Source of the DNA: Patescibacteria group bacterium
GTDB lineage: Bacteria; Patescibacteriota; Minisyncoccia; Phycocordibacterales; Phycocordibacteraceae
Assembly: GCA_030837225.1 (NCBI GenBank)
Contig: JAUPKX010000005.1
Coordinates: 8,049-72,048 of the forward strand
Direction of reading: 5' to 3'
Length of the DNA stretch: 64,000 bases
Part shown: in pieces, positions 42,444-62,600 of the stretch
Layout: each line of letters starts with the position of its first letter
How positions within the stretch are numbered: position 1 is the stretch's first letter
Notes under the pieces: generated by a model
What the model was told of the DNA's origin: nothing
What the model saw: the letters and a program-made list of their open reading frames with translations, nothing else
Databases searched by the model: none
Position numbers and translations under genes: made by a program

Positions 42444-42462
42444 TCCTTAGGACTCTTGTTGT

Positions 42463-42557: not shown

Positions 42558-45086
42558 ATGGCCAATATTCTCAGCAAAATTTTCTCCAAGAACCAGTCGC
42601 AGGGCTTCGTAAAACAGGCACAGCCTGTTGTTGATCATGCGAACAGTCTCTCGGAGGCGTTTGAGAGCCTTTCAGGAGATGAGATCAAAATACGCCTTGC
42701 GGATGTACGGGGCCGTACTAATGGCGTACCGACTGAAACCGCTGACATAGCCGAGGTATTCGCGCTCGTGCGTGAGGCAGCGCGCCGTACGCTCAACGAG
42801 CGTCACTACGACGTACAGCTCGTCGGGGGTCTTGCCCTTGGAAAGGGAAAGATTGCTGAGATGCGCACCGGAGAAGGAAAGACGCTTGTGGCAACCCTTC
42901 CTGTTTCGCTTTACGCCCTTGCCGGGAAGGGGGTGCATGTGGTGACCGTGAACGATTACCTCGCACGGCGTGATGCCGCATGGATGGGTCAGGTGTATGC
43001 CGCGGTCGGTCTTACGGTTGGTGTCGTTACCAGTGGAGGTGCGTATGTATACGATGCCTCTCATGTTGAGACTGAAGAAGATAAGGCACGTGACGAAGAA
43101 GGGTCCTTCCGTGTCTTCTATGACTTCCTTCGTCCGGCAACGAAGCAGGAGGCGTATGCGGCCGATATTACCTACGCTACCAACAACGAGCTCGGGTTTG
43201 ATTATCTGCGTGACAATACTGCGTACGACGCCTCGCAGATTGTGCAGCGTGGACACCACTACGCGATTGTTGATGAGATCGATTCGATCCTTATCGACGA
43301 GGCGCGTACGCCACTCATTATCTCAGGGCCTGCAGGAGACGCTGAGGGTCTGTACGAGCGCTTCGCGTCCATCGTGCGTAACTACGTACAGGAAGAGGAC
43401 TATACTGTCGACGAGAAGCAACGCGCTGTGCAGATAACAGAAGAAGGTATTTCTAAAGCGGAGAAGGCACTCGGTATCGAAAACTTGTACGCCGAGGGCG
43501 GTATGAAGTATGCGCATCACCTTGATACGGCCGTACGAGCAAAAGCCCTCTTCAGGGGAGACAAGGAGTACGTCGTTAAGGAAGGAGAGATCGTTATCGT
43601 TGACGAGTTCACGGGGCGCCTTCAGCCAGGGCGTCGCTGGAGCGAGGGTCTCCACCAGGCTATTGAGGCTAAGGAGGGTGTGCCGATCCAGAAAGAGACG
43701 CGCACGTATGCGTCAGTTACGTTCCAAAACTATTTCCGTATGTACGAGGCTGTTGCCGGCATGACGGGTACCGGTCTTTCTTCAGAAGAGGAGTTCTATA
43801 CGGTGTATGGGCTTGAGGTTGTGCAGGTACCTACACATCGTCCGATTGCCCGAAAGGATTATGACGATCTTATCTTTCAGAATGCACGCGGGAAGTACAC
43901 GGCGCTCGCGGCACACGTGAAGGAGGTGCATGAGAAGGGGCAACCAGTTCTTATTGGAACGGTATCTATTGAAGACAACGAGGTGGTGAGCGATGCGTTG
44001 CACGAGGTTGGCATTCCGCACGAAGTGCTGAACGCAAAGAATCATGAGCGCGAAGGAGAGATTATCGCGAGTGCCGGCAGGAAGGGCGGTGTTACGGTTG
44101 CAACCAACCTTGCAGGGCGCGGTGTCGACATTAAGCTCGGCGGCATCGGTGCATCTGAGGAAATGCGTGAAGAAGTCCGATCGTTTGGCGGCCTTGCGGT
44201 TATCGGTACCGAGCGCCACGAAGCACGCCGCATTGATGACCAGCTTCGCGGGCGTTCTGGGCGCCAGGGCGATCCGGGTGAGACACGGTTCTTTGTCTCG
44301 CTCGACGACAAGCTCATGCGCGTCTTCGCATCGGATATGGTCAAGAACGTTATGGGATCCTTCAAAATCCCTGAAGACGAGCCGATACAGAGCTCGTTAA
44401 TCACTAAGGCGCTTGAGACCGCCCAGAAGCGTATTGAAGGCTTCAACTTCGACTCACGCAAGCAGGTGCTCTCCTATGATGATGTGCTTAATACACAACG
44501 TCTGTCGGTATACCGCGAGCGCATGACTGCCCTCAAGGGAACTAACGAGGAGATCGAAGAGCTCATACGAATGATGATTGCTGGAAGCCCTGAAGCGGTT
44601 ACTGCCTTCGAGCAGAAGCGTGAGGAGTTTGGACCTGAAGCCGTTGCGATGCTTATGCGCCGCCTGCTACTCCAGGTTACGGATACCTTCTGGCTCGAGC
44701 ACCTCGAAACGATGGATTATCTTCGTCGCTCAGTGTCTCTGCGTGCGTACGGACAGCGCGATCCGCTTATTGAGTATCGAAGGGAGGGTCTTGTGCGTTT
44801 CCAGACAATGCAGGAAAGCATCGCTACAGCAGTTGCTGAAGCGATTCCCCGCATACGTCCGGCAGACGATGCTCGCATTCGAGCAGAAGAAGAGAAAACG
44901 CGCGCAAGACTCGTTGCAGCGTCAGAGGGGAGCGACACAAGCGCCGAAGCTCCAGAGCCGGTCCGGAACGAGAACGCGTACAACAGGAACGACGAGGTAA
45001 CAATTAAGAAGGGGGAAGAGACGCAGACTCTGAAATATAAGAAGGCAGAGCCACTTCTTTCAGATGGTTGGACGATCGTCTCGTAA
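42558..45086 (+). CDS. secA: Preprotein translocase ATPase SecA.
   Basis: 842-aa product with DEAD-motor motifs ('MRTGEGKTLVATL', 'DEIDSILIDEARTPLIISG') and the SecA scaffold. Confidence 0.9.
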   Translation: MANILSKIFSKNQSQGFVKQAQPVVDHANSLSEAFESLSGDEIKIRLADVRGRTNGVPTETADIAEVFALVREAARRTLNERHYDVQLVGGLALGKGKIAEMRTGEGKTLVATLPVSLYALAGKGVHVVTVNDYLARRDAAWMGQVYAAVGLTVGVVTSGGAYVYDASHVETEEDKARDEEGSFRVFYDFLRPATKQEAYAADITYATNNELGFDYLRDNTAYDASQIVQRGHHYAIVDEIDSILIDEARTPLIISGPAGDAEGLYERFASIVRNYVQEEDYTVDEKQRAVQITEEGISKAEKALGIENLYAEGGMKYAHHLDTAVRAKALFRGDKEYVVKEGEIVIVDEFTGRLQPGRRWSEGLHQAIEAKEGVPIQKETRTYASVTFQNYFRMYEAVAGMTGTGLSSEEEFYTVYGLEVVQVPTHRPIARKDYDDLIFQNARGKYTALAAHVKEVHEKGQPVLIGTVSIEDNEVVSDALHEVGIPHEVLNAKNHEREGEIIASAGRKGGVTVATNLAGRGVDIKLGGIGASEEMREEVRSFGGLAVIGTERHEARRIDDQLRGRSGRQGDPGETRFFVSLDDKLMRVFASDMVKNVMGSFKIPEDEPIQSSLITKALETAQKRIEGFNFDSRKQVLSYDDVLNTQRLSVYRERMTALKGTNEEIEELIRMMIAGSPEAVTAFEQKREEFGPEAVAMLMRRLLLQVTDTFWLEHLETMDYLRRSVSLRAYGQRDPLIEYRREGLVRFQTMQESIATAVAEAIPRIRPADDARIRAEEEKTRARLVAASEGSDTSAEAPEPVRNENAYNRNDEVTIKKGEETQTLKYKKAEPLLSDGWTIVS

Positions 45087-45099
45087 TATATAAAAAGAA

Positions 45100-45130
45100 G
45101 AGCCGTCCCGTTTCCAGGGCGGCTCCTTTT
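45100..45130. terminator. Bidirectional hairpin terminator between convergent secA (+) and aspartate kinase (-).
   Basis: 'gagccgtccc-gtttcca-gggcggctc' flanked by A-run and T-run. Confidence 0.55.
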
Positions 45131-45133
45131 CTG

Positions 45134-46474
45134 TCACAGGTGATTTCGAAGTATGTACTCATAGATGGTGCCGACCGTTTCTCGTAGGCGTACCTGTGCA
45201 ACGCCAATGATAAGGTTGGCGCGGTTTCCACCGAGTTCATAGAATATAGGTTCTATGCCTCGTACCGCGAGTACATTCAGGATATGGGTTACCTTCACGA
45301 AGCTTCTCCCGAGATCCTGGCCGACAATACAAACAATGCCGATTTCAGACGTTAGAGTCACCTCAGCGGAGCATGAGTCCCGGATCGCTTGCGCGATCGT
45401 CTCACGCTGGTCGCCAATTTTTTTGTCGGGAACGATGACGTCCAATGTATCGAGCCCGGTTGTTACGTGACAGTCTCCGAGTCCGTACCCAGAAAGCGCT
45501 GAGAGCGCGTCGAGGGTGTTTTGATACTTTGCATTCATTCCTGGCTTCGCGATGGTGAACATCGTGAATCCCGGCTTTTCGGTAATGCCCGTAAAGCAGT
45601 GATTGCTGGCGGCTCGTTTGTCGCCATCAGGGTACACATACGTCCCGGGGTTGTTCGGGGTCTCGAGACCGAAGAGCCTCGTGGAAATCCCAGACTCTCG
45701 AACCGGGCCGACTGCTTCGTGGCCGAGCACGTTTGTGTCGCGATAGGCCATTTCCTGCATCTGCGAGTACCCCATACGACCAATTAGAGTCGGCGGCATA
45801 GGAAGCATTTTTGGATTGGCCACGTACACACCGGGCATATCCGTCGCATACTCGTAGAGTTCAGCTTCAATCATTGCGGCAACAATCGCCCCGGTGTTAG
45901 CGGAACCGTCTCGCGGGAAAGTGTGAATCTTTCCGCGTGAATCGCCAGCGTAGTATGCAGGGACAACTACATTGCCAGAAAGTTTAGCTCGACGAATAGC
46001 ACGCTTGGTCATAATCGCGTCATACCGTCCTGAAATACTGTATCGAATCAGTTTTGTTGCATCGATACAGCGCCAGTTTGGCCCGAGCATTTCCGTGAAC
46101 ATGAGTGCGCTCAGATATGGGCCACGGCTTTCGATGTAGTCGAATCGATTCTCGCACCGAAGCTTGTTGAAGCGACCTTCAGCTTCACGAAGGTTTGCGA
46201 TAAGCGCGTCCACGAAGCCCTGTTTAAGTTCAAGGTCCTTTGCGATTTCGACGAAGAGCTCCTTCACGGCGCGCATCGTTTCGATTGGATGTTCTGTGTG
46301 TCGTAAGCTCTGGAGAAGCTCAGCAACACTCATGTCGTGCTCAAGGCGCCTTCCGGGGGCCGGCACAACGATGTACCGACGCTTCGGATCGCTGCGAATG
46401 ACTTTGGCGGCCTGCTTGAAACCTTCAGCAGATGCCAGACAGGAGTCGTCAATTTCTAGTACGGTGTCGCCCAT
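45134..46474 (-). CDS. lysC: Aspartate kinase (amino-acid kinase domain plus C-terminal ACT domains).
   Basis: Kinase-fold N-terminus and tandem ACT-like C-terminal region ('IVCIVGQDL...'). Confidence 0.65.
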   Translation of the reverse strand: MGDTVLEIDDSCLASAEGFKQAAKVIRSDPKRRYIVVPAPGRRLEHDMSVAELLQSLRHTEHPIETMRAVKELFVEIAKDLELKQGFVDALIANLREAEGRFNKLRCENRFDYIESRGPYLSALMFTEMLGPNWRCIDATKLIRYSISGRYDAIMTKRAIRRAKLSGNVVVPAYYAGDSRGKIHTFPRDGSANTGAIVAAMIEAELYEYATDMPGVYVANPKMLPMPPTLIGRMGYSQMQEMAYRDTNVLGHEAVGPVRESGISTRLFGLETPNNPGTYVYPDGDKRAASNHCFTGITEKPGFTMFTIAKPGMNAKYQNTLDALSALSGYGLGDCHVTTGLDTLDVIVPDKKIGDQRETIAQAIRDSCSAEVTLTSEIGIVCIVGQDLGRSFVKVTHILNVLAVRGIEPIFYELGGNRANLIIGVAQVRLRETVGTIYEYILRNHL

Positions 46475-46572
46475 GGCACACCTCCTATTCTGATGTGAGT
46501 GGATACGTTCTCAAGGAACGCCTGTTCGCATCATGCCTATAATACTAGGTAAAGTCAACGTTCTGTGGTACC

Positions 46573-47562
46573 ATGCATAAAATGGCTTTCGTTGATGAGA
46601 TGCACGTACACGCAGTAGCCGGACACGGGGGTCCGGGTGTTGTGCGATGGCTCCATATGAAAGGGCAAGACAAAGGCGGTCCCGCCGGAGGCGATGGTGG
46701 ACGCGGTGGCGACATTATCGTAGAGACCGTTCGCGATCTTGGTGCACTCGCTGCGTATCGTTACACGAAGCGCATCAAGGCAGAGAATGGAGGGCCGGGC
46801 GAGGGTAACGACCGTCACGGGAAGGATGGTGAGCCAGTAGTACTCAAGCTCCCGGTTGGGAGTACGGTAGCGGTCTCCTCAACAGGTGACGTGTTCGACC
46901 TTCTTAAGGAAGGGGAGCGTATCATCGTTCTCAAGGGAGGACCTGGAGGTTATGGCAATGCCCACTACAAAGGCCCGACAAATCAGAACCCGATGAACTC
47001 CATGCCGGGTCGAAACGGCCAGACTGGGGATATCCATATCACCCTTAAGCTCATCGCTGACGCGGGTCTTATCGGCTTCCCGAACGCAGGGAAGTCCTCC
47101 CTCTTGAACGAGCTCACCCGTGCGCGCTCTCGTGTCGGCGCCTATCCGTTTACGACGCTCGATCCTCATCTCGGAGATTTCTATGGGCGTATTCTTGCTG
47201 ATATTCCAGGACTTATCGAGGGTGCCTCGGAAGGGCGAGGTCTCGGTTCTCGGTTCCTCAAGCACATAGAACGTACTAAGTTTCTTGTACATCTCGTCTC
47301 GGTTGAACAAGAAGACGTTGTTGCAGCCTATAGGGCCATACGGGACGAACTAAGTGCGTTTGGTAACGGTCTGGACGAGAAGGAAGAGCTGGTGGTGCTC
47401 TCGAAAGTGGACCTCTTGACCCCAGAAGAGGCTGAAAAGCTCCGAATTGGCCTGGAGGAGGCAGCAGGGAAGCGGGTGCTCGCACTCTCCATTGCAGACG
47501 AGAATCTCCTGAAGGCATTTTCCGATACGCTCACGAAAGAGCTAACCCGGGACGAGGCGTAG
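46573..47562 (+). CDS. obg: GTPase Obg.
   Basis: Gly-rich Obg fold 'GGPAGGDGGRGGDII', G-domain 'GFPNAGKSSLLN' and 'DIPGLIEGA'. Confidence 0.85.
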   Translation: MHKMAFVDEMHVHAVAGHGGPGVVRWLHMKGQDKGGPAGGDGGRGGDIIVETVRDLGALAAYRYTKRIKAENGGPGEGNDRHGKDGEPVVLKLPVGSTVAVSSTGDVFDLLKEGERIIVLKGGPGGYGNAHYKGPTNQNPMNSMPGRNGQTGDIHITLKLIADAGLIGFPNAGKSSLLNELTRARSRVGAYPFTTLDPHLGDFYGRILADIPGLIEGASEGRGLGSRFLKHIERTKFLVHLVSVEQEDVVAAYRAIRDELSAFGNGLDEKEELVVLSKVDLLTPEEAEKLRIGLEEAAGKRVLALSIADENLLKAFSDTLTKELTRDEA

Positions 47563-47600
47563 GTGGCGGGGGAACTTGTGCCTGTGCTAGCATCACTCCT

Positions 47601-49031
47601 ATGAGCGAATACCGACCGACCATAGGCCTTGAGATCCATGCTGAGCTAAACACTTCAACGAAGATGTTCTGCTCCTGCAAGAACGAGCCTGAGGGCTCTG
47701 AACCAAACGTGCATGTCTGCCCGGTATGTATGGCTCACCCTGGAGCGCTACCGGTTGCGAACAAGGAGGCAGTGCGAAAGGTGCTTCAAGTCGGGACTGC
47801 TCTCGGCAGTACGCTCGCGGACTTTACTGAGTTCGATCGCAAGAGCTATTTCTATCCAGACATTCCGAAGGGATATCAGATCAGCCAGTACGAACATCCT
47901 CTCGTTTCAGGAGGTGAGCTCGCTGGCGTTGCGATCACGCGCGTGCATCTTGAAGAAGATACGGCACGCTCGTCGCATACAACAAGTGAAGGGGTTAGTC
48001 TTGTTGATTTTAATCGAGCCGGGGTGCCACTCATGGAGCTTGTTACAGAACCCGTTATCCATGACGCAGAAACAGCAGGAGTATTTGCGCGTGAGCTTCA
48101 GCTCCTCCTTCGAACCATTGGCGCGTCGCATGCAAATCTTGAAAAGGGAGAGATGCGAATCGAGGCTAATGTTTCGGTCTCAAAAGATGGCACCATGGCA
48201 AAGAAATATGTGGAGGTTAAAAATATAAACTCCTTCCGTTCGGTCGAACGTGCGATTGCATTTGAAATTGCACGACAGTCAAAGCTCATTGACGAGGGAG
48301 GTGTCGTTTTGCAAGAGACGCGCGGGTGGGACGAAGGAGGCCAGAAGACCTTCTCGCAGCGCCTTAAGGAAGGGAGTGCCGATTACCGCTATTTCCCGGA
48401 ACCAGATCTTCCGAAACTTATCCTCTCAGAGATACCTGAGTTTGCCGCCGAGGCATTGCGTGCGTCGTTACCCGAGCTGCCTTGGGAACGAAGAGCGCGA
48501 TACCGAGAACTCGGTCTCAAGGAAAACGACATAGTGTTTCTTGCGGGCTCAAAGGAACGAGGGGAATTTTTCGATGCTGTCATTACCGAAGTTGAGGGCG
48601 ACACCGATCTCCTCATCGCGTGTGCAAATTACCTCATCTCTGACGTAGCAGGTTGGTATACAAAAAGCAGCAAGGAGGAGTATGAAGGACTCGCTCCAAC
48701 TTCGTTAGTTTCGTTAATTCGGCTTGTGTCCAAGGGAGACCTTTCTTCCCGTGGTGCCAAGGATGTCCTCGTAGTCCTCTTAGAAGAGGGAGGTGATCCA
48801 GAGACCATCGCCAAGGATCGAGGATTAATCCAGGTTAGTGACGAGAACGCGCTTCATGTGGCGGTCCTAGGAGTCCTTAGAGAGCACGAGGGTCCTGTGG
48901 CGGAATATCGGTCAGGCAAGGAATCGTCCCTTCAATTCCTCATAGGTATGGGTATGAAGGCAACCCAAGGAGCCGGCAATCCCGGTACGCTTAAGAAGCT
49001 TCTCCTCGAGGAGCTCAACAAGGGGACGTAG
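47601..49031 (+). CDS. gatB: Asp-tRNA(Asn)/Glu-tRNA(Gln) amidotransferase subunit B.
   Basis: 'PTIGLEIHAELNTSTKMFCSC' N-terminus and the overall GatB motifs. Confidence 0.85.
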   Translation: MSEYRPTIGLEIHAELNTSTKMFCSCKNEPEGSEPNVHVCPVCMAHPGALPVANKEAVRKVLQVGTALGSTLADFTEFDRKSYFYPDIPKGYQISQYEHPLVSGGELAGVAITRVHLEEDTARSSHTTSEGVSLVDFNRAGVPLMELVTEPVIHDAETAGVFARELQLLLRTIGASHANLEKGEMRIEANVSVSKDGTMAKKYVEVKNINSFRSVERAIAFEIARQSKLIDEGGVVLQETRGWDEGGQKTFSQRLKEGSADYRYFPEPDLPKLILSEIPEFAAEALRASLPELPWERRARYRELGLKENDIVFLAGSKERGEFFDAVITEVEGDTDLLIACANYLISDVAGWYTKSSKEEYEGLAPTSLVSLIRLVSKGDLSSRGAKDVLVVLLEEGGDPETIAKDRGLIQVSDENALHVAVLGVLREHEGPVAEYRSGKESSLQFLIGMGMKATQGAGNPGTLKKLLLEELNKGT

Positions 49032-49048
49032 GTCGTGGTTGCTAAGTA

Positions 49049-49085
49049 GAAACCACCCGGGTTTGCTCCCGGGTGGTTTCTTTCT
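49049..49085 (+). terminator. Rho-independent terminator after gatB.
   Basis: 'gaaaccacccgg-gtttgctc-ccgggtggtttc' followed by tttctgttt. Confidence 0.6.
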
Positions 49086-49158
49086 GTTTAAATCAGGCTG
49101 GAGTTATGGGTGTTCATAACCTATTCGAAACGAGGCAAGAAAGTATTATAATCCATGC

Positions 49159-50067
49159 ATGGATGAGATAACTATTGGTGACAAGACATATGTCTCGTCA
49201 AAGCAGGCGGCAAAAATTACTGGTTACGCGAAAGACTATGTCGGTCAGCTTTGTCGAGAAGGGAGAGTAGAGGCTCGCTTAGTTGGCCGTAACTGGTATG
49301 TACTAGATTCAGCTATCCGAGAGCATAGATTTGGAAAGGAAGATGAAGTTGAGCTGGTAGTTAAACAGGAGCACGCCGTTACTGATAGAGCCTCAACATG
49401 GCAGAAGCCTCAGTATGTAGCTGAAACGCCTGTTTTAGTGCCTGAATTTAGCAATAAGGCAACAGAAACTGTGGGATCTCCGGCAATTGCTGATATGCAG
49501 TCTGCATGGAGAGAGTGGTTCGATGAGAAAAAGCCTCCACAGGTAGCGTTACCTGACGGGTCTGATGACTTTAAGGATGAGTATCTTCCAATAATCGTAC
49601 CAGAAACCGCTCCTGAGCCTGTTTTAGAGGCTCCAGCGATAGCGCAGACACAGAACGCTGACCAGGAAGAAATAGTCGCTATCTCACGAATTCGAAACCC
49701 TGAGCCAGAACCGCTAACAGTCGCAGAACAAGCAATACCGGAAGAAGAAAGAGTTGAGCTACATCGATCATATGCAACAGCGAACACTCCCCGCGAGGAA
49801 TACGAGGAAGTCTATCCAGAACAGCCGTTTGTTCGACAGGCACAGAGGCCAATAACTAAGCCAGCTGCTGTAGAGGTTAAGACATCGGGCAGCAGCATCG
49901 TCGTACGCGCACTCCTAGTCGTCGTATCTGTAGCTGCAATACTTACAGCGCTTATAGGAACAGGGAATGCGGAACAGCTTCTTTCAGGAACGAGCCTTGA
50001 TTACGGAGTGCAGAAGTCGATAGTAGACTTTCTCGGAGGAAAGAGCACGTATAAAAGTAGCTTATAA
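49159..50067 (+). CDS. Hypothetical protein with an N-terminal excisionase/MerR-like HTH-like domain, an acidic Pro/Glu-rich linker and a C-terminal TM helix. The N-domain is paralogous to the start of the downstream giant gene.
   Basis: 'SSKQAAKITGYAKDYVGQLCREGRVEARLVGRNWYV' fits the HTH_17-like pattern. C-terminal 'IVVRALLVVVSVAAILTALIG' is hydrophobic. Confidence 0.5.
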   Translation: MDEITIGDKTYVSSKQAAKITGYAKDYVGQLCREGRVEARLVGRNWYVLDSAIREHRFGKEDEVELVVKQEHAVTDRASTWQKPQYVAETPVLVPEFSNKATETVGSPAIADMQSAWREWFDEKKPPQVALPDGSDDFKDEYLPIIVPETAPEPVLEAPAIAQTQNADQEEIVAISRIRNPEPEPLTVAEQAIPEEERVELHRSYATANTPREEYEEVYPEQPFVRQAQRPITKPAAVEVKTSGSSIVVRALLVVVSVAAILTALIGTGNAEQLLSGTSLDYGVQKSIVDFLGGKSTYKSSL

Positions 50068-50175
50068 AATAACAGTTTCTCGTCTCGTATATACGAGATA
50101 GACCAATAAGATTCTAGTTAACGAGATTGGTGCAAATTAGGTAAGATCATCTACTCTAACCGATCTGTTAAAGAT

Positions 50176-50198
50176 AAAGCCCTCATTTGAGGGCTTTA
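50176..50198 (+). terminator. Hairpin terminator downstream of the 49159 gene.
   Basis: 'aaagccctca-ttt-gagggcttt' followed by AT-rich sequence. Confidence 0.5.
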
Positions 50199-50679
50199 TG
50201 TACATAAGGGGTCATGGCAAGCATCCAGATAAAGGGTGCAATATCCTCTATTGTAATGCGCTGCATGCACTTAACTGGTGAAAATACCTTTTTAAGTCTA
50301 ACAATCAGTAACTATACCTATATATAGGATACGTAAGTGCAATAGAGTCTAGCTATTTCAATCCGACTTACTAGGTAAGTACTAACTATAACGGATTGCC
50401 GACCTTACGTGCTTAATTAATGTATAGATACGATAGAGTTCGAGCTTTTTTGTTGAGTCGTGGCTCTTTGCACACAAACTTAAATACTCTAGGTATGAAA
50501 TGTTGATCATGGCGCCTAAATCTTCTGTGAGAATTTTGTTTTTCTTTATAAACAAATTCCTATGGTTGCGATCGATAACTTTGTGAACTTACGCTTAAGA
50601 CTATCCACAAATGAGTATGCGGTAAATGCTAAATAACAAGCTAAAATGTAGCTAATTCGGATATCCGACCTACTGCACC

Positions 50680-53600
50680 TTGAACTCTCTTCTCCAGAAA
50701 AATTTAATCTCAACGAAAGAGGCTTCTGCACTTTCTGGTTACAACGCCGACTACTTGTCGAGACTTTGTCGTGAGAAGAAAATTGCGAGTTCACAAGTTG
50801 GTCGCACGTGGCTGATTGAGAGAGCCTCACTCGAGGTTTTCATGGAGACTCAATTAGATAGGAAAATTGAGCTTGCTGAGAATCTTGCTCGGGAGAGGGA
50901 GCTTGAATATAGAAAGGCAAATAGTTCTGTCACCCAGGTTTTTGAGGCGGGGAATGATCTTGAGAATAAGATGCGCGTGGCAGCGAGTTCAATGCTTGGA
51001 GCTTTTTCCTCTGTACGCATACCACGTTCTATGCCAGTTATGAGTGGTCGTGCATTTGCTGCAGGACTTACTGCAGTCATACTCGGCGCTAGCGTAACAC
51101 TAGCGGGTAGTGGCGTTGTGGCACGCGCAGGTGAAATGTTATTGGCTTCAGCATTTGAGGTTCGCGCACTCGTTGTTACTGCTGTCTCCACATCAAACTC
51201 ACTTGCAGTAGAGAAGACTGCGGAATTTTCTAGAATTGCAGAAGATGAAATAAAAAAAGTAGACACATCGCTTGTTCGTGCGGCAGACACACGAGTGGCA
51301 ATGTTTCCCCTTACTCTCGGTGGAGTCATTGAGAATTCACACGAGCCGGTAGAGATGACTGAACTCGCGTATGCCCGTGCAAATGAAATCTTTGAAACGT
51401 ATCCCGAGCCTATTGCGTCCACGCAGACGGTTGAAAAAATCATGTATGCAGCAATGCACCCTAAAGAAGTGCTGGCAACAATTGCACGTGAGGCGATGTT
51501 TGCATACAGCCGACTTGGCGTGTACGCACTCAACGATATTCAAACCGTCCTCGCTCTTCACCTATATGGAGTTGAGGCGGCAGCGAACGGCCTCCTATCA
51601 GTTAGTGACAATACGAGGGATATCGCAGGACAGGCACCACTAGCTATCGGAAATGCATTTGTTACTACGTCCTCTGCAGTGCTGTCTTCGTACGAACATG
51701 CGGTCTACGCATATGTCGAGAACATTGATGTACTACCGAGCGCTATCACCGGTTTGGTATACGGGCTCGGGAACGGTATTGGCGGCTCAGTAGCGATGGG
51801 TGTACAGACTGCACCGGTTGCCTACGAAGAGAGCGTACTGGCCTTCGTAGAGGAGTCAGTATCTGCAGGATCGATGATCTCCGAAGGCTCGTTCGCCTTT
51901 GGAAAAGAAGCAGATAGAACGGTTTCAGGCCTTCTGGAAGCTGAGGACCGTGCCATAGTCCAGTCAGTAGAGAGTGTAAGGCTGGCCGTTACGAGTATTG
52001 AGAACACGACAGCAAGCGCAGCGCTCGCCATCGAATCAGTACCCTCAGTGGCTACTGACAAAGTCCTTGGAATTGTGGGAGGTATTGCACTTCGTATCGA
52101 GTCGACGGATACCAGCATGCTCTCAGCATCGCCGCTAGTTTCTCTTGATATTGATCGATTCATTCCGGGGTTCCTACGGAACGTAACTGCGGTTCTGGCG
52201 CATGCAGTGGGCAGCGCTTTCCACGGAATCTTCGGTCCGCTCGCTGGTTTCTTCGGCGCGTCGGAAGAAGTGGGACTCGCGGTTATCCCAAGCGATGGGA
52301 GTTCATTCTCTGGACCAAGTGGTGCAACCGGTACGGAAGAGGCAGTGAAAGGAAACACGACGGTCTATACCGGACCGGTAACCATCGTACGTAACGAATA
52401 CCCAACGGTGACGTACGGCGGGGTACCGCAGTCCTACGTCGACGAGCGCTACGAGTTCCTTCGCCGTACGCTTTATAACCGAATCGAAGATGTTTCAAAT
52501 GACGACACGTTCTACGGCGAGGTACGAGATAGCGGTATTTACGATAGCAGCATTGTTGATTCGACTTTTACCAATGGCGAAATCATCGATTCAACAATCA
52601 CTGGAGGAACTATCACGGGCGCTGCCCTCGATGTTTCGACCTCGACTATCACTGGCTCGCTAACTGTTAATGGAGACATCGCAGCTAATGCCATTGTCTC
52701 GACAAGCTCGACAAGTACGAACGCTACGTCAACGAATCTTTTTGCAACTAATGCATCCTTCACCAACCTTCTTGGCGGGAGTGCAACAATAACGAACGCA
52801 ACCTCGACATCGTTCTACGCAACACTCGCAACCATCGTTGATGGATTCTTCACGAACCTCACCGCGACACTCGCAACCATTACGAATGCGGTTATCACAA
52901 ACCTCACCGCAACGAACGCGACGCTCACGAATGCGACATCGACTAACGCTACGTCAACGAACCTCTTCGCCACCAACCTCACGGCTACGAGCGCAACCTC
53001 AACAAACCTCTTTGCTACAAGTGCACGCATCACGACCGGTATCATCGACGCGCTCACCTCACCGCTCGCAACCATAACCACTGCGATTGTCACAAACCTC
53101 ACGGCAACGAACTCAACGCTTACAAACGCAACCTCAACAAACTCGTTCGCACTTTCGTACCTCACCCCGTCCAGACTCTTGTCCGTCGGATCGAATGGCG
53201 TCGCAACCTCAACCAGCCTTTCCTCATGGGTTGCGGGTACCCTAAACCAACTCACCGTAACGGATAACGGTACCGGGGGAATCACACTCTCGCTCCCTTC
53301 GACCATTGCGATCGGCACCTCGCAGGTAACTACCATCCGAAGCGATGGTGCTACCTCGACCTTTGGTGGCGGTATTCAGGCCTCTATTGTCGAGGGAGGG
53401 CAGTATATCGCTGGTCCGTACGTCCTTGCTACCTCAACAACCGCTACCTCTGCATTCTCGGGCAATATTGCAGTTGGCAGGAATGCGACCTTTGGAACCA
53501 GTGCCTCTGATCTCCTTACGGTTAATAGCTCCGTAGCATCAAACCTCATTCCGACCACCAACAACACGTATGACTTCGGCTCAACCGCAAGCTACTGGCG

Positions 53601-56600
53601 CCGGGGCTATATAGACGACCTTACCGTTAACAATCTCTCGGCCGCATCGACTTCTATTGCAGGTACGGTTTCAAACTCGTTTACAATTAACGCCGACAAC
53701 GCGACGAACGACACGGAGGACGTAACACTCATTTTCAAGAGGGGCACCGCATCACCAAATGCGCTCATGACGTGGAATAGCTCAACGGATCGTTTTGAGT
53801 TCAACATGCCGGTATTCTCCGCAACCGGCCTCTTCACGAGCGCAACTTCGACAAACTTCGGCACCACGAACTTCACCCTTAACAGCAACACCTTCACGAG
53901 TCTTCTTGGTACGGGACTCTCGAACGTGAGCGGTGCACTTACGGTTGATTACGACGCCCTCGATTCCGACTTCTTCCGTCAGGGAGGGAACTCATACGCA
54001 ACTACTGCAATGCTCGGTACAAATGATGCTAACGATCTCGCGTTTGAGACGAATGGTACGACGAAGATGACGATCCTTTCGGGAGGGAATGTTGGTATCG
54101 GCACCACGACACCAACCGGCAGACTCTCCATTGTTGCGAGCACAACCGGGGACTCACTCGTGATAGCAAGCACTACGGGCGCCCGCATGCTCACCGTTAA
54201 TCCAGGCGGATCCCTCATCTTCTCTGCAACGGGCCAGTCATACAAAGTGGTGTCTGGCGCAGACGAATATGGCCCAGACATTTTCCTTAATCGCACAATA
54301 GGGACCGAAGCGACCGCGAACGAGCACGGCATCATCGATCGCAACCAATTTGGAAGGGCGACCAAGGCCTATAACTCGTACGATTCTCAAACATACTTCA
54401 CTGGTACGAGTAACTACGACCACTACGCCGGCTTCCAGGCGCGGGGCGTGATGAATTCATCCGGTACGCTGACGGACTACTACTCGTTCTACTCAGCGCC
54501 TCAAGCAAGTGCAGGAACCATAACGAACGTATACGGGCTCAAGGCAGCTAATCCAGCAGGTGCAGGTGCAGTTACGAACAACTACGGTGTCTATATTGAT
54601 AGTCAGACGAAGGGAACGAATAACTTTGCCATCTACACAGATGGCACCACGAAGTCCTATTTCGGAGGAAACGTCGGCATCGGTACAACGACACCATCTT
54701 CTCTCCTCGACCTGTATAAGAGCACGGACGGATACACCAAAATAACCGTACGGAACCCGAACACGGGTACTGATGCGTTAACTGGTATAGATTTCGTGCA
54801 GGACCTGGGCGGCGTGGGATCCTTGTACGCTACAGGAAATACCTTTGACGGAAATGCAGACTTTGGCGCAATGTCAGGCTTCTCGAATAGCCTCTGGTTA
54901 GACGCATCGTTTGAACTAACTGGAGGCTTGAAGCTCGTAGCACGCAATGGAGACATTGGCTTCTATGCAGGAAGTAGATCGACACAGAACGTAACAATAT
55001 CGGGTACGAATGGAAACTTAGGCGTTGGCTCAACCACGCCGTATGCAAGACTCTCTGTTAAGGGAGCAGGTACAACTACCGGTGTTAACTTCCAGACCAC
55101 CAACTCAAGCAACTCACCACTCTTTACGGTACTTGATAGCGGTAACGTTGGTATCGGTACTACAACACCTGCCGAGCTACTCACCATTGATAGCGGAAGT
55201 CTCCGTTTCGAGTCAGTAAGCGCAGGGAGAGGAATACTCGCCAGCAGTAACGGTGTTAACCAGGTGTTCTCACTTACGCGGCAGGATACGGTTGCGTCTG
55301 CCGACCTATCAATATCTGGGTACGGGGGGGTCGGTATTACGGGCGGAAGGACGTCATCTCCTGCTACATCTGCCTACCACTTGTACGTAAATAGTGCCGG
55401 CAACGTTGGTATCGGTTCTACCACTCCAGCTGAGAACCTCACGGTTAACGGAGCAATTCAGTGGGGTAACACAACTCCTTCTACAGGAACAGCAAATATC
55501 TATAACTCAGGACGGCTCGGCACATACAACAGTGGTGCGTCACCGCTTGCACAATACAATTACGTGCAACCAGCAACAGGGAAAGCGCTTGTTGTCTGGA
55601 ACGCAAACAGCAATATAGTTGCAGCGTTCGGTCAGACCGGTAGTGATACGAACACTAACTCCTATTTTGCAGGCAACGTGGGTATTGGTACTACAAGCCC
55701 AGCTCAGAATCTGCATATAGATCAGGGCACAGCAAGTACCCTCCCTATTATTCAGCTTAGCGGAGCAGGCGGAACCATCGCAAAAATTGGTCGGGCAAGT
55801 AATTTCATGAATGCCGGAACTGCCGCTGACCTAGGAATTAATGCTCCGACAAGTCAATCACTGTATCTCGGAGTGGGCGGCTCATCGTTTGTAACACTTA
55901 AATCGACAGGCAACGTGGGTATTGGAACAACGACGCCTATCGGCAAACTCACCGTCTACGAGGATTCTGACGCCGTGATGTACACCGCTAATCCTTCTGC
56001 CAATGTATTCTCAGAAAACTACATTGACACAACCAACAATGTTACCAACCACCGGTCCGTTGCGTACGCTCACCAGTTTTACACTTCTGGTAGCACGATA
56101 GCAGCAGCAACAGAGAAGATGCGTATACACCAAAATGGAAACGTCGGTATTGGTACTACCTCACCTGAAGCAGCGCTCACCGTTAATGGAGATATAAAGA
56201 CAAACGGTGGCTTTACGACATACGCAACAAATGAAGTGTTTAAGGCTATAAACGGCGGTACGAGTGCTGTGGCGGCTCGCTACGGCAATAGCAACAATGA
56301 TTTCTATGTCGGTACAGAAGGCAATACTGCGGGAGGCTACTTCACCGGTGCACTCGCAAATAGCTCTGTACTCTATAGTACCCGCGCAGTGCAGACCATC
56401 ATAGGAGGAGTATCGAGAATGATTATTGATACGTCAGGCAACGTTGGTATTGGTACGACCAGCCCAGAAGGGAAGCTTGATGTCAATGCTGGACTCGGGG
56501 TCTACTCATACATTGGAGGTTCAGTACTGGGACATAGAAGCATCCGTATGGGCGCTGACGCTAGTGGGTATGCAACGATTCAAGGCACAGGAAGAGGTAC

Positions 56601-59600
56601 ACAGATAGGGAGTTTCTTTAACATAACGCTACAGCCAGGCGGTGGCAACGTTGGTATTGGCACTGTGAGTCCTGGGGAAAAGTTAGAGGTTTCTGGAAAT
56701 ATAAAGCTTTCGACATCCGCTAGTTATCTAGCATTTGGCAATCCGAGTACTCCGCTTTACCTTGGTAGCGGAAACTCTTTATTGTTTTCTCCGGATAATA
56801 ATGAGCAATATGCAGTATTAAGGGGCTATGCTGGGGCTGTATTAGCGGTAGGAGGTAATCCGGGGCTGCTCTTAAACGCCAGTAGCAACGTCGGTATTGG
56901 CACGACGAACCCCGGGACCAAGCTCCATGTCCTCTCTACCAATGCCGGCGGAGACTCAAACACCCTCATGCTAGATAACGCTGGAGCATCCGGCATTACT
57001 ACCACGAGTCTCACGTTCGCGAACGGAGGAGCGGTAAAGGCAAGAATAACGGGTGCTGTGTATGGTGATGGATACCTCGCGTTCAACACGAATGACGATA
57101 CTGAGAAAATGCGTATTACCGCAGTAGGCAGGGTCGGTATTGGAACGACTACACCGCAAGGCAAATTCCACGTTAAGGGCTCAGATGGCGAATCCTTACT
57201 AAGAGTGTCTGGCGCAACAGGAGGTATAAGAATACGCCCGTATGTGGACGCAACCTCAGGCACCTACATTGAAAGTGTGAATACTGCAGAAAGTGCCTAT
57301 CTACCGTTGCGTCTTGAAGCCTCAACGACAATATTAGGCATAAACGGCAATGTCGGTATTGGTACAACCACACCGCTTTCTAAACTCCAGGTTTCAACAA
57401 GTGGTGCAGATGCGTTCAGTCTCGATCTTCTTACAGGAAGCTCTCACGATACCGGCATACGCATCGGACGTGGTAGTGGTGCTAATGGTGCAGGAATACA
57501 GATGGTGACTTCCGCTACAGACTATCTTAGTTTCTACGTAAATGGTTCCGCGCTCCCTGCTATTAATACAGCAGCTCAGATGGTGCTTACGGAGGGTGGC
57601 AACGTCGGTATTGGTACCACGGGACCGTTAGGAAAACTCCATGTCCTAACCTCTACCGACACCACACCAAACACCATTGCGGCGTTTGATGCACGGCACG
57701 CTGTCTTCGGTCCAGGCACTGTCGATGGTGTTTCTATCTCTAAGACAACGGGGGGTAGTGCCTACATCAGCTCCGTTCGTCCAGGTATTGCATGGGATCC
57801 GCTAGCTGTACAAGCAAGTACCTTTAGTGTTAATCCTAGTAGCGGTACCACAGCCTTCCATGTTACTGCGGCAAGCAACGTCGGTATCGGCACGGTATCT
57901 CCTGGAAGTAAATTACAAGTTAGTACGGGCAACTCTAGTTATGTAGCCAGCACAGCCGCCTTTTCTGTGCGGAAAAACGAAGAGGGGTACGGACTGTTTG
58001 TTGGTAATGCCAGCTCTGGCAACAGTTGGTTACAGGCAGGCTATTCCGACGGCTCACTACTCTATGACTTGATACTGCAACCTAATGGCGGAAAGGTTGG
58101 TATTGGTACTACGACGCCTTCGGAAAAGCTTTCGGTTGCAGGAGACATCTTTGTGAGTGATGCCACAGACCCAGAACTCAAACTCAATAAGACTAGCGGT
58201 ACTCAAAAAACATTCTCGTTTAATGTAAATAATGACAACGCATTTCAATGGCTAGACAGGACAGCAGGCCTTACGCGCTTGTACCTCACGACAGGCGGCA
58301 ACATGGGTATCGGGGACTACTACGGGGCAACTACCAATACCCCACAGAATAAGCTCTCAGTAGCAGGAAGTGCGTCGATCGGGTATGCCGTGGGTAGTGA
58401 TGTTGCGGCTCCTACCAATGGCCTCATCGTTAATGGCAACGTCGGTATTGGTACTACCACTCCACAGGAGGAACTATCAGTCTCGAAGAACGGCGTTCCA
58501 CAGATTAGCCTTGAAAATAGGAGCGGCACTACTCGTAACGCCCAAATCATATTCCGCAATACAGCGGGTCCTACGTGGCGGCTCGGTACGGACATGAGCA
58601 CCAATAACAATACGGACAACTTCCAAATCTATAAGGATGCCCTAGGTCTTCCGGTGCTTACTATCGACTCCGCGGGTGACGTCGGTATCGGTACCGGACA
58701 TACAAATCCACTCTACCCACTCGATGTAAATGGACTCGCTCTCATTCGCGGATACACGGTTGGTGTTACCGCCGCACTCGCTGATGCCTATAAGTTTACC
58801 CATGACGGCGGAACCTCATTCGTGAACAACCAAGGAGGGAGCTTTGGTGTCGGCACAACGACCCCAACAGTTGAAATGGAAATTGGTGGTAGCAGCTCGC
58901 CATCATTACGTTTGCGTCCGTATTTCGCAGGCGCTCCTGACGCAAGCGGGTACTACACAACAATTAATGCGGCGTACTCTGATGAGGCAATGAATCTTAG
59001 TGTTGGTGGCTACAAGGTGCTCTCAACACTCGGCTACGACACTCCGACTCAGTTGCTTCTCTACACAGGCAACACCGAGCGATTGCGCATTAATTCCTCA
59101 GGCAACGTTGGTATTGGTACCTCGAACCTCTTTAAGCCCCTTACGGTTGAAGTAGGAACTGCGGGAGGTGTTAATCAGGGAATTGTAATAAACAGCTCAC
59201 ACGCTTTCGGTAGCGGCCAGGGAACGGCTGCAGCAGCGCTTGTGTTCGCGCGCAATCGCACTATAGACACCTCATCTTTGTATGCTATGGCGCAGATCGA
59301 TGGAGGAAATGAGAGCGAAACCACGAGTGCATACGGCTACCTTGCGTTCTCAACTGCGAACAGTGGCGGAACGCTGGTGGAGCGAATGCGCACTTCGTCC
59401 TCAGGCAACGTCGGTATTGGTACCACCACTCCAGACTCAAAACTCAATATCCAGATGGCGGGAGATGGAACGGGACTTGCTATAAATTCGAGCTACTCAG
59501 CAGGAGGATACAAAAAAATCATTGACGCCGGTCAGACTGGTTCGGACGGGTATCTCAAAGTGAACGACGCGCTCGGTGCCACGGTGAGTTACTTGAGTGG

Positions 59601-62600
59601 CTACACTTCGAGTCCTTCATATTTCTTGAGTAGTGTCGGTATTGGTACAAGTACCCCGGTAAGTAAGTTCAGTGTGTATCAAGCATCAGGTGCAGGAAGG
59701 AGCATTGCCGAATTCTCCAATGGTAACAGGGACCGGATGCTCCAGGTCGTACATGATATTTCTGGAGACTCAACCTCTTACATCGGTCTCAATGCCCGAG
59801 AATTTGGATCGACTCTTGGACGTGACTTCGTCATTCAGACAGGAGGGACTGAAAGAATGCGCGTAGCGTATTCAACAGGCAACGTCGGTATTGGTACCGT
59901 GAATCCCGGCGCAACGCTCGACGTTAAGAGCCAGATCAACCTAACTAATGCAACCGGTAATTCGATGGTAGGAGTCAGGGGGACTGAGTTCGGATATGCT
60001 GCGGGCTACAAGGCGCTGCAGATAGGAGCTACATCTGGCACCTACACCGTAAGTATCGGCTACGATCCGTCGACCAACGCAAGCCCAGCATTCACGGGGG
60101 ACGGCAGTGAGGTTATCTTCAGGAACGGCGTGAAGTTCCTAACGCCGAACGCTGCGAATAATAGCTATCTCAGCACCATGACGATGCTGAATGGCAACGT
60201 CGGTATTGGCGAGACTGCTCCAAGTGAGAAACTCGTTGTTGCAGGGCAGGGAACAGGCAGGATGCTCGTTGGAGACGTAGGGTTCGGTGACGGGTACACG
60301 GGCCTTTCGATGAATGGCGTACTTTCCACCACGAATTACAACCTCTTAGGCTCGCCTGGTCAGGCGCACTTTTGGATTAATCGTGCAACAGGAGGGAATA
60401 TCAGCTTCCGTGAGAATAACGGTACCGACCAGATGACTATTGCGTCAGGTGGTAACGTTGGTATTGGTGTAACTGCCCCTGACGGCAAGCTTCATATTCT
60501 CAACAATACGGCCTCGCAAGCGTTAAGTAGCGGTAGTATTCGGCTCGCCGGTTCCGCATACGCATCTTCAGGATGGGCAATGCGCATACCTGATGACGGA
60601 TCTACGGGAAATTTGTACTTCGACAGGGAATACGCCGGCTGGGCTTCAACCCCTGTCCTTATGTTGCAACGATCTACAGGCAACGTAGGTATTGGCACAA
60701 CAAACCCTACCGCTAAGCTAACGTTGAATGGAACTGCCGGAGCTAATCCAAATGCTGGTGCAGAGATTGAGTATACAAATGCGCTTATTTTCCAATCAAG
60801 CAGCGCACATTCCGTTGGTGCAATTAAAACAGTGCAACCAACTGGGTACTATGTGGATGCTGCCGACATGACTTTCTCTACAGGATACGGCAGTTTAACT
60901 GAACGTATGCGTATTCAGGGCAGCACAGGCAACGTCGGTATTGGCACCACAACTCCATCCGGAACCCTTGATATATACAAAGCAGGCAATGCCACCCTTA
61001 ATATAACGGGTACTAACATCGCGGGCATAAACCTGAAGGGTGATAATGGTAGTGGATTTGCAAACATAAACACCTACAACGACGGTACCTTGCGTATAGG
61101 GGCAAGCGTCTCTGGATACAACTCAGGCACAACAGATCTTGTGATTAAGAATGGTTATGTTGGTATGGGTACTGCAAGTCCGCTAGCCAGGTTACAGGTT
61201 GGTGATAGTGCATCTCTCACTAATTATCAAGGTGCAACTGTAGGTATCGTACGGCCTGCCGGCTCAGGCTCATGGTTAGAGTTAGCTGACAACACAACTT
61301 ACGGCTCGGCGTTCCGTATTTCGCAGGATTCAAATAGTGGAATAGCTTTTAACTCTAATGGTCGTGATATTGGTTTTAGGGCAAGCGGCTATAGTACTGC
61401 CATTGCCGATGCGCAGCTTGTTTTGAAGTCGTCGGGTAATGTCGGTGTCGGCGCCCAAATTCCGCTGGCAAAATTACACGTACAGCAAGCGCTACCAACT
61501 AGCATTGGCAGTTTGCCATCAAATGTCGGCCTAATCTTAGATTCAAACACTCACAACTACTTGCTATTTAGAAACACCGCCGATAATAGTACGTATTCCG
61601 GACTTCAATTCCAAGATAATAATGTCGGGGGATATTTGGTATTCCAAAATTTTAGTGGCGGCGTCACAAGCGACAGCATGCTCTTTGGTACATATCAGGA
61701 CTTTGTCTTCCAAACTGGTACTTCGGAAACAGTTGGGGGCAAGAGCACAGTTATGACGATTAAACAGACTGGAAACGTTGGTATTGGTACAACCAATCCT
61801 CTCGCTATAGATGGCGGTGCTGCAACACGCTTTCACACTAAAGTTACGGGTGGAACAGGGAATATTGAAGTGGCTCGATTTGAAGGAGGCGACGATACCG
61901 ATAACACCTACGCAGTGTTGCGCGTAAACCATAACAACGATCGCGGTTTCTTTGTGAAAGGTGGGCGGCAGACAGGGGACACGGCCATAGCTACCATGGG
62001 ACTCACAAACAATGGAGGAGCAATGACAGACATCATGACATTCCTCGGCAGCAACGTTGGTATTGGAAATACCTCTCCAGGCGAAAAACTCACCATTGAA
62101 GGCAACAGTGCTGCCATGCTCATTCAGACGGCATCTGATCCTACGGTCTATCGAGCAAAGATCACTGCTAACTACAACTATACGAACTCAGTACTCTTCA
62201 CGGGACTCAACAACACGGAAATTATTGGCCAGTATGCGTATAACGTTACGGTAGGTAATTCGTCAGGTAACGTTGGTGTCGGTACAACAGGTCCAACTCA
62301 GAAGTTCTCTATTCTCGCCACGGGCATATCTAATCAATTCGAACTTCGCAATAATAATCAGGCCCTTTGGATTCGCCAAGGATACAAATCGGATGGAACC
62401 GCTACCCCCGCCGCAGACACAAATAATGTGCAGTTCCAGTCAAGTGGAAGCTCTAGCGGTACCTTCTCCTTCACTAGCGGAAACGATGAAGTGTTGCGTA
62501 TGACACTTGGTAGTAGTGGTATACGATTCAATGCCTATGGAGCAGGTACGCTCGTGACTGACGCTTCAGGAAATATAACCGCATCATCTGACGAACGTCT

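Follow-up and report, generated by a model that had tools for sequence, protein, structure and literature searches.

A predicted winged helix-turn-helix domain heads both a giant tail-fibre-like protein of Patescibacteria and its small membrane neighbour

Introduction

Paceibacteria form a large uncultured part of CPR (Candidate Phyla Radiation) bacteria, and their lifestyle is thought to depend on attachment to other cells. To our knowledge, next to nothing has been learned about the construction and control of their surface structures. Here, we describe two adjacent genes, named S and G, in a 64,000-nucleotide stretch of DNA from a Patescibacteria group bacterium (contig JAUPKX010000005.1 of assembly GCA_030837225.1, positions 8,049 to 72,048), hereafter called the window. 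S encodes a small membrane protein, whereas G encodes a protein of more than 4,000 residues that is probably a giant surface fibre. Both proteins begin with a helix-turn-helix (HTH) domain of the excisionase type, and the locus thus raises the question of what such a domain does at the head of a fibre and of its small neighbour. A preliminary description of the window, which located both open reading frames (ORFs) correctly, had drawn attention to this pair. We find that S and G constitute a conserved two-gene module of Paceibacteria. The module suggests a connection, so far undescribed, between the inside of the cell and a giant fibre on its surface. Its anatomy is solid and widespread, and for its mechanism we offer a clear hypothesis that can be tested cheaply.

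Shared N-terminal domain of S and G

The two genes and their N-terminal domains occupy the following positions in the window.

49159-50067, + strand: S gene, from ATG 49159 to TAA 50067, 302 amino acids (aa), encoding a small, predicted single-pass membrane protein with an N-terminal winged HTH
49183-49332, + strand: predicted winged HTH of S, residues ~9-58, indicated by an HTH_17 match of 20.1 bits, the AlphaFold2 model and Foldseek neighbours
50680-64000, + strand: G gene, TTG start, ~4,441 aa, ending ~6 nt beyond the window
50701-50850, + strand: predicted winged HTH of G, residues ~8-57, indicated by an HTH_17 match of 30.8 bits, AlphaFold2 confidence of 92-96 and Foldseek neighbours

The N-termini of S and G had been described as about 40% identical. 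The peptides quoted in that description are present in the two proteins, and BLASTP aligns them without gaps, with 16 identities (40%) and 28 positives in 40 positions (E 1e-10). The similarity is also significant at the level of profiles, as the hhalign comparison of 22 S with 8 G sequences reaches a probability of 97.8% and an E-value of 1.1e-12 over 49 columns. Hidden Markov models of one family match the gene of the other at 46 and 34 bits, and match no other ORF of the window. Outside the HTH, hhalign aligns nothing between S and G, and BLASTP between their transmembrane regions is not significant (E 0.9-18).

The assignment of the domain to the excisionase/MerR-type HTH_17 family, made in the preliminary description, agrees with the family matches, the predicted structures and the structural neighbours. 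Pfam HTH_17 (PF12728, gathering threshold 27) matches G with 30.8 bits when a 300-aa fragment is searched and with 25.8 bits when the full-length protein is used. S scores 20.1 bits, which is under the threshold of 27. The TIGR01764 "excisionase family" model matches G weakly, with 21.5 against a cut-off of 28.8. Precomputed annotations assign PF12728 to each of the G-type N-termini retrieved and to several homologues of S. In public annotations, these proteins are named "hypothetical", "helix-turn-helix domain-containing" or "excisionase family DNA binding protein".

The AlphaFold2 predicted local distance difference test (pLDDT) score is ~90 for residues 1-58 of S and 92-96 for residues 11-70 of G. 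Both models have the β-α-α-β-β-α arrangement of a strand, a helix-turn-helix, a β-hairpin wing and a helix. The S model is built of strands 3-6 and 9-13, helices 14-21 and 25-34, strands 39-42 and 45-49, and helix 50-58. A Foldseek search with the N-terminal domains, which had been proposed as a check, identifies Pukovnik Xis, BldC, RdfS, pIP501 TraN, RacA and Tn916 Xis as the nearest solved folds, with Xis, BldC and RdfS among the neighbours of S and TraN, Xis, BldC and RacA among those of G; CbpM is also among the neighbours. Mycobacteriophage Pukovnik Xis (4j2n) superposes with a root-mean-square deviation of 1.5-1.7 Å over 45-46 residues (target TM-score 0.68-0.71), and the identity between TraN and the G HTH is 35% over 54 columns. 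Owing to the short length of the domain (~50 residues), Foldseek returns weak E-values (0.03-0.8). Its match probabilities range from 0.9 to 1.0, and the S and G queries both retrieve the same family. The HTHs of S and G share a signature of their own, SGY..DY[LV]..LCR.G.[IV]....VGR.W. As modelled, the two HTHs are paralogous domains of the excisionase/MerR-type fold, borderline by sequence threshold.

The N-terminal module of G is common. An exhaustive profile search found it in 6,739 representative proteins with E<=1e-3, of which 1,273 have E<=1e-10. Among the best 150 of the 6,739, the match is always N-terminal and starts at residue 1-15, or at ~60-100 where the HTH is duplicated. The domain also heads other giant proteins: 42 of these best 150 proteins are 2,000-7,275 aa long; most of the others are probably shortened by contig ends. 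The whole architecture of G is common to all 30 of the 30 long members examined. Word-indexed homologue searches with the G N-terminus returned 5 and 8 matches only, with low-complexity words saturating the candidates. In some G homologues (loci L058, L065 and L079; proteins P0139 and P0140), a tandem double HTH precedes the membrane segment.

Start of the G gene

The G reading frame opens past TAA 50653-50655, has TTG 50680 as its first start codon, and stays open for 4,440 codons to the end of the window. An overlapping Logan contig, the S protein of which is identical, carries a public gene call for G of 4,387 aa that begins at the internal ATG 50842. It follows from this call that G counted from TTG 50680 is ~4,441 aa long and that its stop codon lies just beyond the window.

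The public call introduces the alternative that G truly begins at ATG 50842, that the HTH-like stretch is untranslated, and that its similarity to S is a product of chance or annotation. ATG 50842 corresponds to Met 55 of G, lies after the HTH, and has GAGG a few nucleotides upstream, whereas TTG 50680 lacks a Shine-Dalgarno sequence. However, every homologous locus preserves the HTH frame as protein sequence, and the corresponding start codon is an ATG in most of them. The hhalign E-value of 1e-12, the pLDDT of 92-96, and the N-terminal position of the match in all of the best 150 of the 6,739 proteins with the G module are likewise at odds with an artefact, which we consider effectively refuted. 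The G homologues retrieved start with M-[NKT]-x-L-L...ISTKEAS.LSGYNADYLSRLCR at the position equivalent to TTG 50680, which supports this codon as the G start.

The HTH of G is often missed or shortened by gene callers. Calls that start G after or inside the HTH hide the architecture in many annotations, and it is under-annotated. Two database homologues, P0129 and P0133, have their called start at an internal methionine within the HTH (MLSGYNADYLSRLCRE...).

Conservation of the gene pair

When each species was represented by a single genome, a scan detected S relatives in 229 stretches; 80 loci were analysed, and the module is conserved in at least 229 species-level genomes. In essentially all of the ~70 species-level Paceibacteria loci that extend far enough downstream, a long ORF headed by a G-type HTH comes after the S-type HTH gene on the same strand. 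The spacer between the two genes has a median length of 601 bp, and extends over 50068-50680 in the window. The G ORFs in the analysed loci usually run off the fetched sequence at >900-1,400 aa; four longer contexts contain G genes of 4,097-4,387 aa. S and G are thus a conserved two-gene module of Paceibacteria (Patescibacteria/CPR).

The preliminary description had suggested that S might be a paralogous partner of G or might regulate it, and this suggestion gains support from the order, strand and spacing kept in ~70 species. Anchor, partner, decoy and regulator are all candidate roles for S.

Membrane topology

The N-termini of S and G are not hydrophobic, and an N-terminal Sec signal peptide is absent from the first ~30 residues of both proteins. 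Each protein contains a single hydrophobic segment, located near the C-terminus in S and after ~120 residues in G. Hydropathy thereby bears out what had been read from the sequence before.

49897-49959, + strand: predicted transmembrane helix of S, residues ~247-267, Kyte-Doolittle hydropathy (KD) 2.66, AlphaFold2 helix 244-267
51049-51123, + strand: predicted transmembrane or signal-anchor segment of G, residues ~124-148, KD 1.88, AlphaFold2 helix 124-141

No second window with KD>=2.0 is present in 51 G homologues of up to 7,275 aa. Lysine and arginine residues (K+R) were counted in the 15-residue flanks of the segments. In 22 S proteins, their mean number is 2.55 on the N-terminal side and 0.82 on the C-terminal side; the N-terminal side is richer in 21 of the 22 and poorer in one, without ties. 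The corresponding means in 51 G proteins longer than 1,500 aa are 2.20 and 0.96, with the N-terminal flank richer in 35, poorer in 4 and tied in 12. Translocation is not expected for a folded N-terminal domain of 120-245 residues that lacks a signal peptide. From the single hydrophobic segment, the K+R bias and the absence of an N-terminal signal peptide, we predict by hydropathy and the positive-inside rule that both proteins cross the membrane once with their N-termini inside. The HTHs would be cytoplasmic, and the C-terminal parts, including the fibre of G, would be outside. The prediction agrees with the proposal that a cytoplasmic N-terminal domain tethers an extracellular mega-domain.

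Many G homologues contain small-x-small (AxA-like) motifs after the hydrophobic core, such as AYA followed by ST, AQA and VQA. In G of the window, ARA followed by G is located at residues ~140-150 (~51100-51130). These motifs may be signal-peptidase sites, or they may be an effect of composition. In the former case, the membrane segment of G could be an internal signal sequence that is cleaved, so that the fibre is freed and a stub of ~150 aa, comprising the HTH, the helix and the transmembrane segment, stays behind. The motifs lie directly past the hydrophobic core, and the layout of the stub would resemble that of S. One stub would be produced per exported fibre and could feed back on transcription; cleavage would fit a DNA-binding as well as a protein-docking HTH. 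However, motifs of this kind are expected by chance in sequence rich in alanine, glycine and serine, and the hydrophobic segments are 19-25 residues long, as is typical of anchors. We consider cleavage of the G segment unlikely.

Structure and conservation of the S protein

The S protein consists of the HTH, a linker, the transmembrane helix and an outer tail. The HTH is nearly invariant, with 42 invariant positions in ~60 residues, whereas the overall identity of S proteins drops to 40%. The linker that follows is acidic, ~185 aa long, and mostly modelled with low AlphaFold2 confidence; it is presumably disordered. It contains the conserved islands STWxxPxY, DMQSAWxEWF (a helix in the AlphaFold2 model), LPDGSEDF and ELHRSY. 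Beyond the hydrophobic segment, 35 residues remain to the C-terminus. They form a conserved tail, GTGNAxxLLxGTSxDFGxQKxIIDFLGG, which is predicted to be extracellular.

The homologue search with S found 1,298 proteins at E<=0.001. In the best 120 of these, the alignment spans most of the length, and all those with a named source are from Patescibacteria/Paceibacterota. The protein identical to S in NCBI is a hypothetical protein of "Patescibacteria group bacterium". A PDB sequence search with the S profile gave no relevant match, and PHROGs has no match for S or for the G N-terminus. The NCBIfam match of S to MamR was disregarded, since it scores 16.8 bits against a cut-off of 100.

The conservation of S bears on what its HTH might bind. 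HTH domains can dock onto proteins: the HTH of RodZ binds MreB, and CbpM binds CbpA. The HTHs of S and G could similarly bind each other, or a conserved cytoplasmic component of secretion, division or the cytoskeleton, with S serving as a partner in the assembly or anchoring of the fibre. The extreme conservation of the S HTH is consistent with docking, and the short linear motifs of the linker, together with the conserved outer tail, suggest protein partners. Furthermore, the structural neighbours include CbpM; in all loci examined, S lies strictly adjacent to G, and the pair is found beside secA in a deeply conserved block. Nevertheless, the best structural neighbours are DNA-bound proteins, the docking partner is only hypothetical, and docking leaves unexplained the locus-specific DNA motifs present in both promoters, which are described below. 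We regard docking as the main rival to DNA binding, somewhat unlikely yet deserving serious attention.

The G protein resembles a phage tail fibre

The G protein is composed, from the N-terminus, of the HTH, a charged helix, the signal-anchor, a conserved stalk of ~1,000 aa, a body with GNVGIG motifs, a Peptidase_S74 domain, an Ig-like domain and a Pro/Ala-rich tail.

50821-51006, + strand: charged, predicted cytoplasmic helix of G, residues 48-109, continuous in the AlphaFold2 model
54085-62283, + strand: variable, putative fibre body of G with 23 GN[VIL]G[IV]G motifs (regular-expression count)
62587-62757, + strand: Peptidase_S74 chaperone domain, PF13884, 36.3 bits against a threshold of 22, with the SSDERLK motif
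63709-63924, + strand: bacterial surface Ig-like domain, PF16403, 75.3 bits, followed by the Pro/Ala-rich tail

The charged helix holds the conserved sequence QxxRKxExAExLARERxxEYR, in which the alignment columns are invariant. The C-terminal part of G, including the S74 region, matches phage tail-fibre PHROG families. G belongs to the S74 family by a domain score over the threshold and by the Ser...Lys motif at the cleavage site: ASSDERLK is located at residue 3969, and the motif is conserved in homologues. By analogy with the family, G may trimerise and cleave itself in the S74 manner.

Comparison with close relatives, which are 3,484-4,524 aa long, divides G into three regions. The N-terminal ~1,090 and the C-terminal ~560 residues are 62-75% identical to those of the relatives, whereas the central ~2,700 residues are 25-28% identical and differ in length. 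The fibre body thus looks variable and cassette-like, a pattern of adhesins and tail fibres with a variable business part. G is probably a giant, trimeric, tail-fibre-like surface fibre, and is very likely among the largest genes of the genome.

Conserved motifs around S and G

The non-coding DNA around the two genes contains the following elements.

49125-49152, + strand: putative S promoter, TCGAAA, 16 nt, TATAAT (10 of 12 matches in the promoter scan)
50078-50098, + strand: inverted S-box or palindrome TCTCGTCTCGTATATACGAGA, starting 11 nt past the S stop
50174-50199, + strand: terminator-like hairpin past S, -19.7 kcal/mol, z -4.55, 0 of 200 shuffles as stable
50601-50609, + strand: DnaA-box-like CTATCCACA, upstream of the G core promoter
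50642-50647 and 50649-50669, + strand: G -10-like box TAAAAT, then the block TAGCTAATTCGGATATCCGAC, which contains the palindrome TCGGATATCCGA (G-box)

Motifs upstream of S and after its stop were counted in 82 loci, and those of the S-G spacer in 71-72 loci; the S proteins are only 32-40% identical across these species. Anchored at the S ATG, the 82 loci have the consensus TTTCAA-ACGAGACGAGAAAGCCT-TATACT/TATAAT-ACATGC-ATG, which is sigma-70-like with a 17-nt spacer. CGAGACGAGA, with at most one mismatch, is present at -45 to -10 of the S start in 48 of the 82 loci. The spacer of the S promoter in the window contains the S-box-like CGAGGCAAGA at 49131-49140. In the window, 6 nt separate the end of the -10 box from the S ATG, and this distance suggests a leaderless S mRNA.

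The inverted copy TCTCGTCTCG, again with at most one mismatch, is located within 45 nt of the S stop in 66 of the 82 loci. It is present as an exact 10-mer in 49 of 72 spacers, as part of the consensus palindrome GATATCTCGTCTCGTATAGACGAGAT. The S gene is bracketed by inverted copies, with CGAGACGAGA in the promoter spacer and TCTCGTCTCG after the stop. A third conserved TCTCGTCTCG site was considered and rejected, as most of the extra matches, located ~1.9 kb upstream of S in nearly every locus, are coding sequence for the conserved HLVS motif of Obg and have no regulatory meaning. The few other matches outside the two S sites are scattered, without a fixed position.

A hairpin comparably strong to that past S in the window is present in 58 of 71 homologous spacers, compared with 15 of 71 shuffled controls. 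Since a stable hairpin follows S and G has a -10-like box of its own, S and G are probably not co-transcribed and most likely form separate transcription units. The Rfam models at gathering thresholds detect no known RNA family in the S-G spacer.

The TTATCCACA box and TAGTTAATTCGGATATCCGAC both precede the G start. TTATCCACA, with at most one mismatch, is found in 67 of 72 spacers, usually as a single copy at a fixed distance of ~72 nt before G, and on the + strand in 69 of 78 matches. An exact TTATCCACA is also located at 42108-42116, between the MurB and SecA genes, with ~0.5 exact matches expected by chance in the window. The spacer was considered as an oriC, and this was rejected on account of the normally single TTATCCACA box per spacer, its fixed promoter-proximal position, and window counts at the level of chance. 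The consensus of 71 loci upstream of G reads TTATCCACAAA ... GTTATAAT-TT-TAGTTAATTCGG(A/T)TATCCGAC-ATG. Its last 21 nt, directly before the G start, form a block with 80-99% column conservation and without a Shine-Dalgarno sequence. The clade of the window has a 10-nt insert, CTACTGCACC, and a TTG start in place of the usual CCGAC-ATG junction. The G block is unique within the window (0.12 matches expected), and the other motifs are no commoner there than expected by chance.

Proposed regulation of the locus from the membrane

We hypothesize that S and G are membrane-tethered paralogues that bind DNA and control the locus encoding them, and give this slightly less than an even chance of being correct. 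We infer the DNA binding, the assignment of the HTHs to the motifs and the direction of regulation. The S-type HTH would bind the CGAGA-CGAGA repeats in the spacer between the -35 and -10 boxes of the S promoter, as well as the inverted copy that follows the S stop codon, with the long flexible linker allowing it to reach the DNA. The G-type HTH would bind the palindrome TCGGATATCCGA between the -10 box of G and its start codon, which is a common position for a repressor. Production of the fibre could thus be controlled from the membrane, as in one-component regulators of the ToxR/CadC type.

The proposal is consistent with the nearest solved structures, all of which are DNA-binding winged HTHs, and with the strong conservation of both the S HTH and its candidate site. 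HTHs of the BldC and Xis type bind direct repeats head to tail, and such binding would fit the direct CGAGA-CGAGA repeat.

Several observations weigh against regulation by DNA binding. The S HTH (20.1 bits) and the HTH of full-length G (25.8 bits) score under the Pfam threshold of 27, and the net charge of the HTHs, counted on the S and G sequences, is only ~+2 to +3. The box in the S promoter of the window differs from the consensus at two positions. That the S HTH hardly varies throughout a class-level clade is more usual for a domain that docks on conserved machinery than for one in a local regulator. Among HTH_17/MerR-like proteins, some, such as TorI, act via protein contacts, and CbpM, cited as a protein-contact HTH, is among the Foldseek matches. 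A search for co-variation of the central G-box bases with the residue that opens the recognition helix (N/H/T/S) found none. Finally, the conserved block before G could equally be a leader RNA or a translation-initiation element, and the S-box after the S stop could be an RNA hairpin, as its copy in the window has a folding energy of -9.5 kcal/mol (z -2.9) as RNA.

An extension of regulation by S and G would make the giant fibre the sensor of a one-component transmembrane device. Contact with the host, export or cleavage of the ectodomain would alter the action of the G HTH at TCGGATATCCGA, either directly or through a stub released by signal-peptidase or intramembrane cleavage, and S would be a co-regulator or antagonist acting via the CGAGA repeats. 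We think that this is distinctly unlikely. If true, it would mean that the attachment organelle of an episymbiont is physically coupled to transcription.

The HTHs might also bind DNA for a purpose other than the control of transcription, and tether the chromosome or the locus to the membrane at the site where the fibre is inserted. Such a role would have precedents in anchoring of the RacA/Noc type, or could support the coupled transcription, translation and membrane insertion of the 13-kb gene. The structural neighbours include RacA, a winged HTH that anchors the chromosome, and the HTH of G is followed by a long helix, as in RacA; the candidate sites flank S and lie at the 5' end of G. However, each locus contains only a few sites, the rest of the 64 kb has none, and the sites overlap promoter elements, which better fits regulation. 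Tethering of this kind appears improbable to us. As readings, both tethering and the cleaved stub overlap in part with the regulation of the locus by S and G.

The conserved motifs, the two 60-aa domains and the three short DNA sites amount to binding hypotheses that are directly testable. If the HTHs bind the sites, the module would represent a new class of membrane-tethered regulator, in which an excisionase-type HTH is fused to a tail-fibre-like giant, and would provide a handle on host-contact signalling in CPR bacteria.

Comparison with known systems

The HTHs of S and G have, as modelled, the fold of Xis/RdfS, BldC, TraN and RacA, and are borderline by sequence threshold in the same family (PF12728, TIGR01764). 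TraN contains two tandem HTH repeats, as do some G homologues. Known HTH_17/excisionase proteins are small, soluble and cytoplasmic, whereas the S/G HTH heads proteins predicted to be membrane-anchored, one of which exceeds 4,000 aa.

ToxR, TcpP and CadC have a layout like that predicted for S and G, with a cytoplasmic N-terminal DNA-binding domain, one transmembrane helix and an extracytoplasmic part. CadC is a membrane-bound ToxR-like regulator that acts on a nearby promoter (PMC5430869). The DNA-binding domain of ToxR/CadC is an OmpR-type winged helix (Trans_reg_C), whereas Pfam detects only HTH_17, and no Trans_reg_C, in S and G. The outer part also differs, as it is a small sensor domain in ToxR/CadC, a 4,000-aa fibre in G, and a 35-aa tail in S. 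The S-G pair may work like ToxR-like regulators, but it is not a member of their family. RodZ similarly has an N-terminal cytoplasmic HTH, a single transmembrane helix and an extracytoplasmic domain; however, its HTH is of the XRE type (HTH_25) and is combined with DUF4115, neither of which is matched in S or G by Pfam and NCBIfam models. The preliminary description called the arrangement of S and G unusual. This does not apply to the combination of a cytoplasmic HTH with one transmembrane helix, which ToxR/CadC and RodZ have alike, but it does apply to the class of the HTH and to the 4,000-aa tail-fibre-like ectodomain.

G shares with phage tail fibres and endosialidase tailspikes that carry a C-terminal S74 domain the S-D-x-R-x-K motif, the PHROG matches and a repeat-rich sequence. 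Unlike phage fibres, G is encoded on the chromosome as a cellular gene with housekeeping neighbours, it has a predicted N-terminal membrane anchor, and its S74 domain is followed by a further ~400 aa that include the Ig-like domain.

Giant predicted membrane or surface proteins, thought to mediate attachment, have been described in small-celled host-dependent bacteria, namely Vampirococcus (PMC8080830) and Omnitrophota (bioRxiv 10.1101/2023.11.21.568195). These two reports mention neither an N-terminal HTH nor a small paralogous partner, and the domain content of the proteins differs from that of G. The searchable literature on CPR and giant bacterial proteins, which has incomplete coverage, contains no description of the N-terminal HTH architecture or of a small paralogous partner.

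Neighbourhood of the module

The genes next to S and G in the window have housekeeping functions and encode Wzy_C/TPR, MurB, SecA, an amino-acid kinase, Obg and GatB. The order Wzy_C/TPR, MurB, a small ORF, SecA, Obg, GatB, S and G (38879-50067 in the window up to the end of S; loci L006-L009) is kept down to 40% S identity. The amino-acid-kinase gene (45134-46474, minus strand) is present in the window and absent from loci L006, L007 and L009.

At the other end of the window, the 16S rRNA gene is split, with Rfam small-subunit rRNA matches at 7183-7763 and 8361-9460. An ORF for a LAGLIDADG_2 endonuclease (7826-8482) lies between these matches and overlaps them in part, and a group I intron (9923-10730) carries a LAGLIDADG_3 ORF (9978-10706). 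The split rRNA region is followed by tRNA-Ile(GAT) at 11119-11194, in an arrangement that CPR rRNA operons typically have. Directly past the rRNA/tRNA-Ile region lies an ORF (11187-11819) with a PrcB_C domain.

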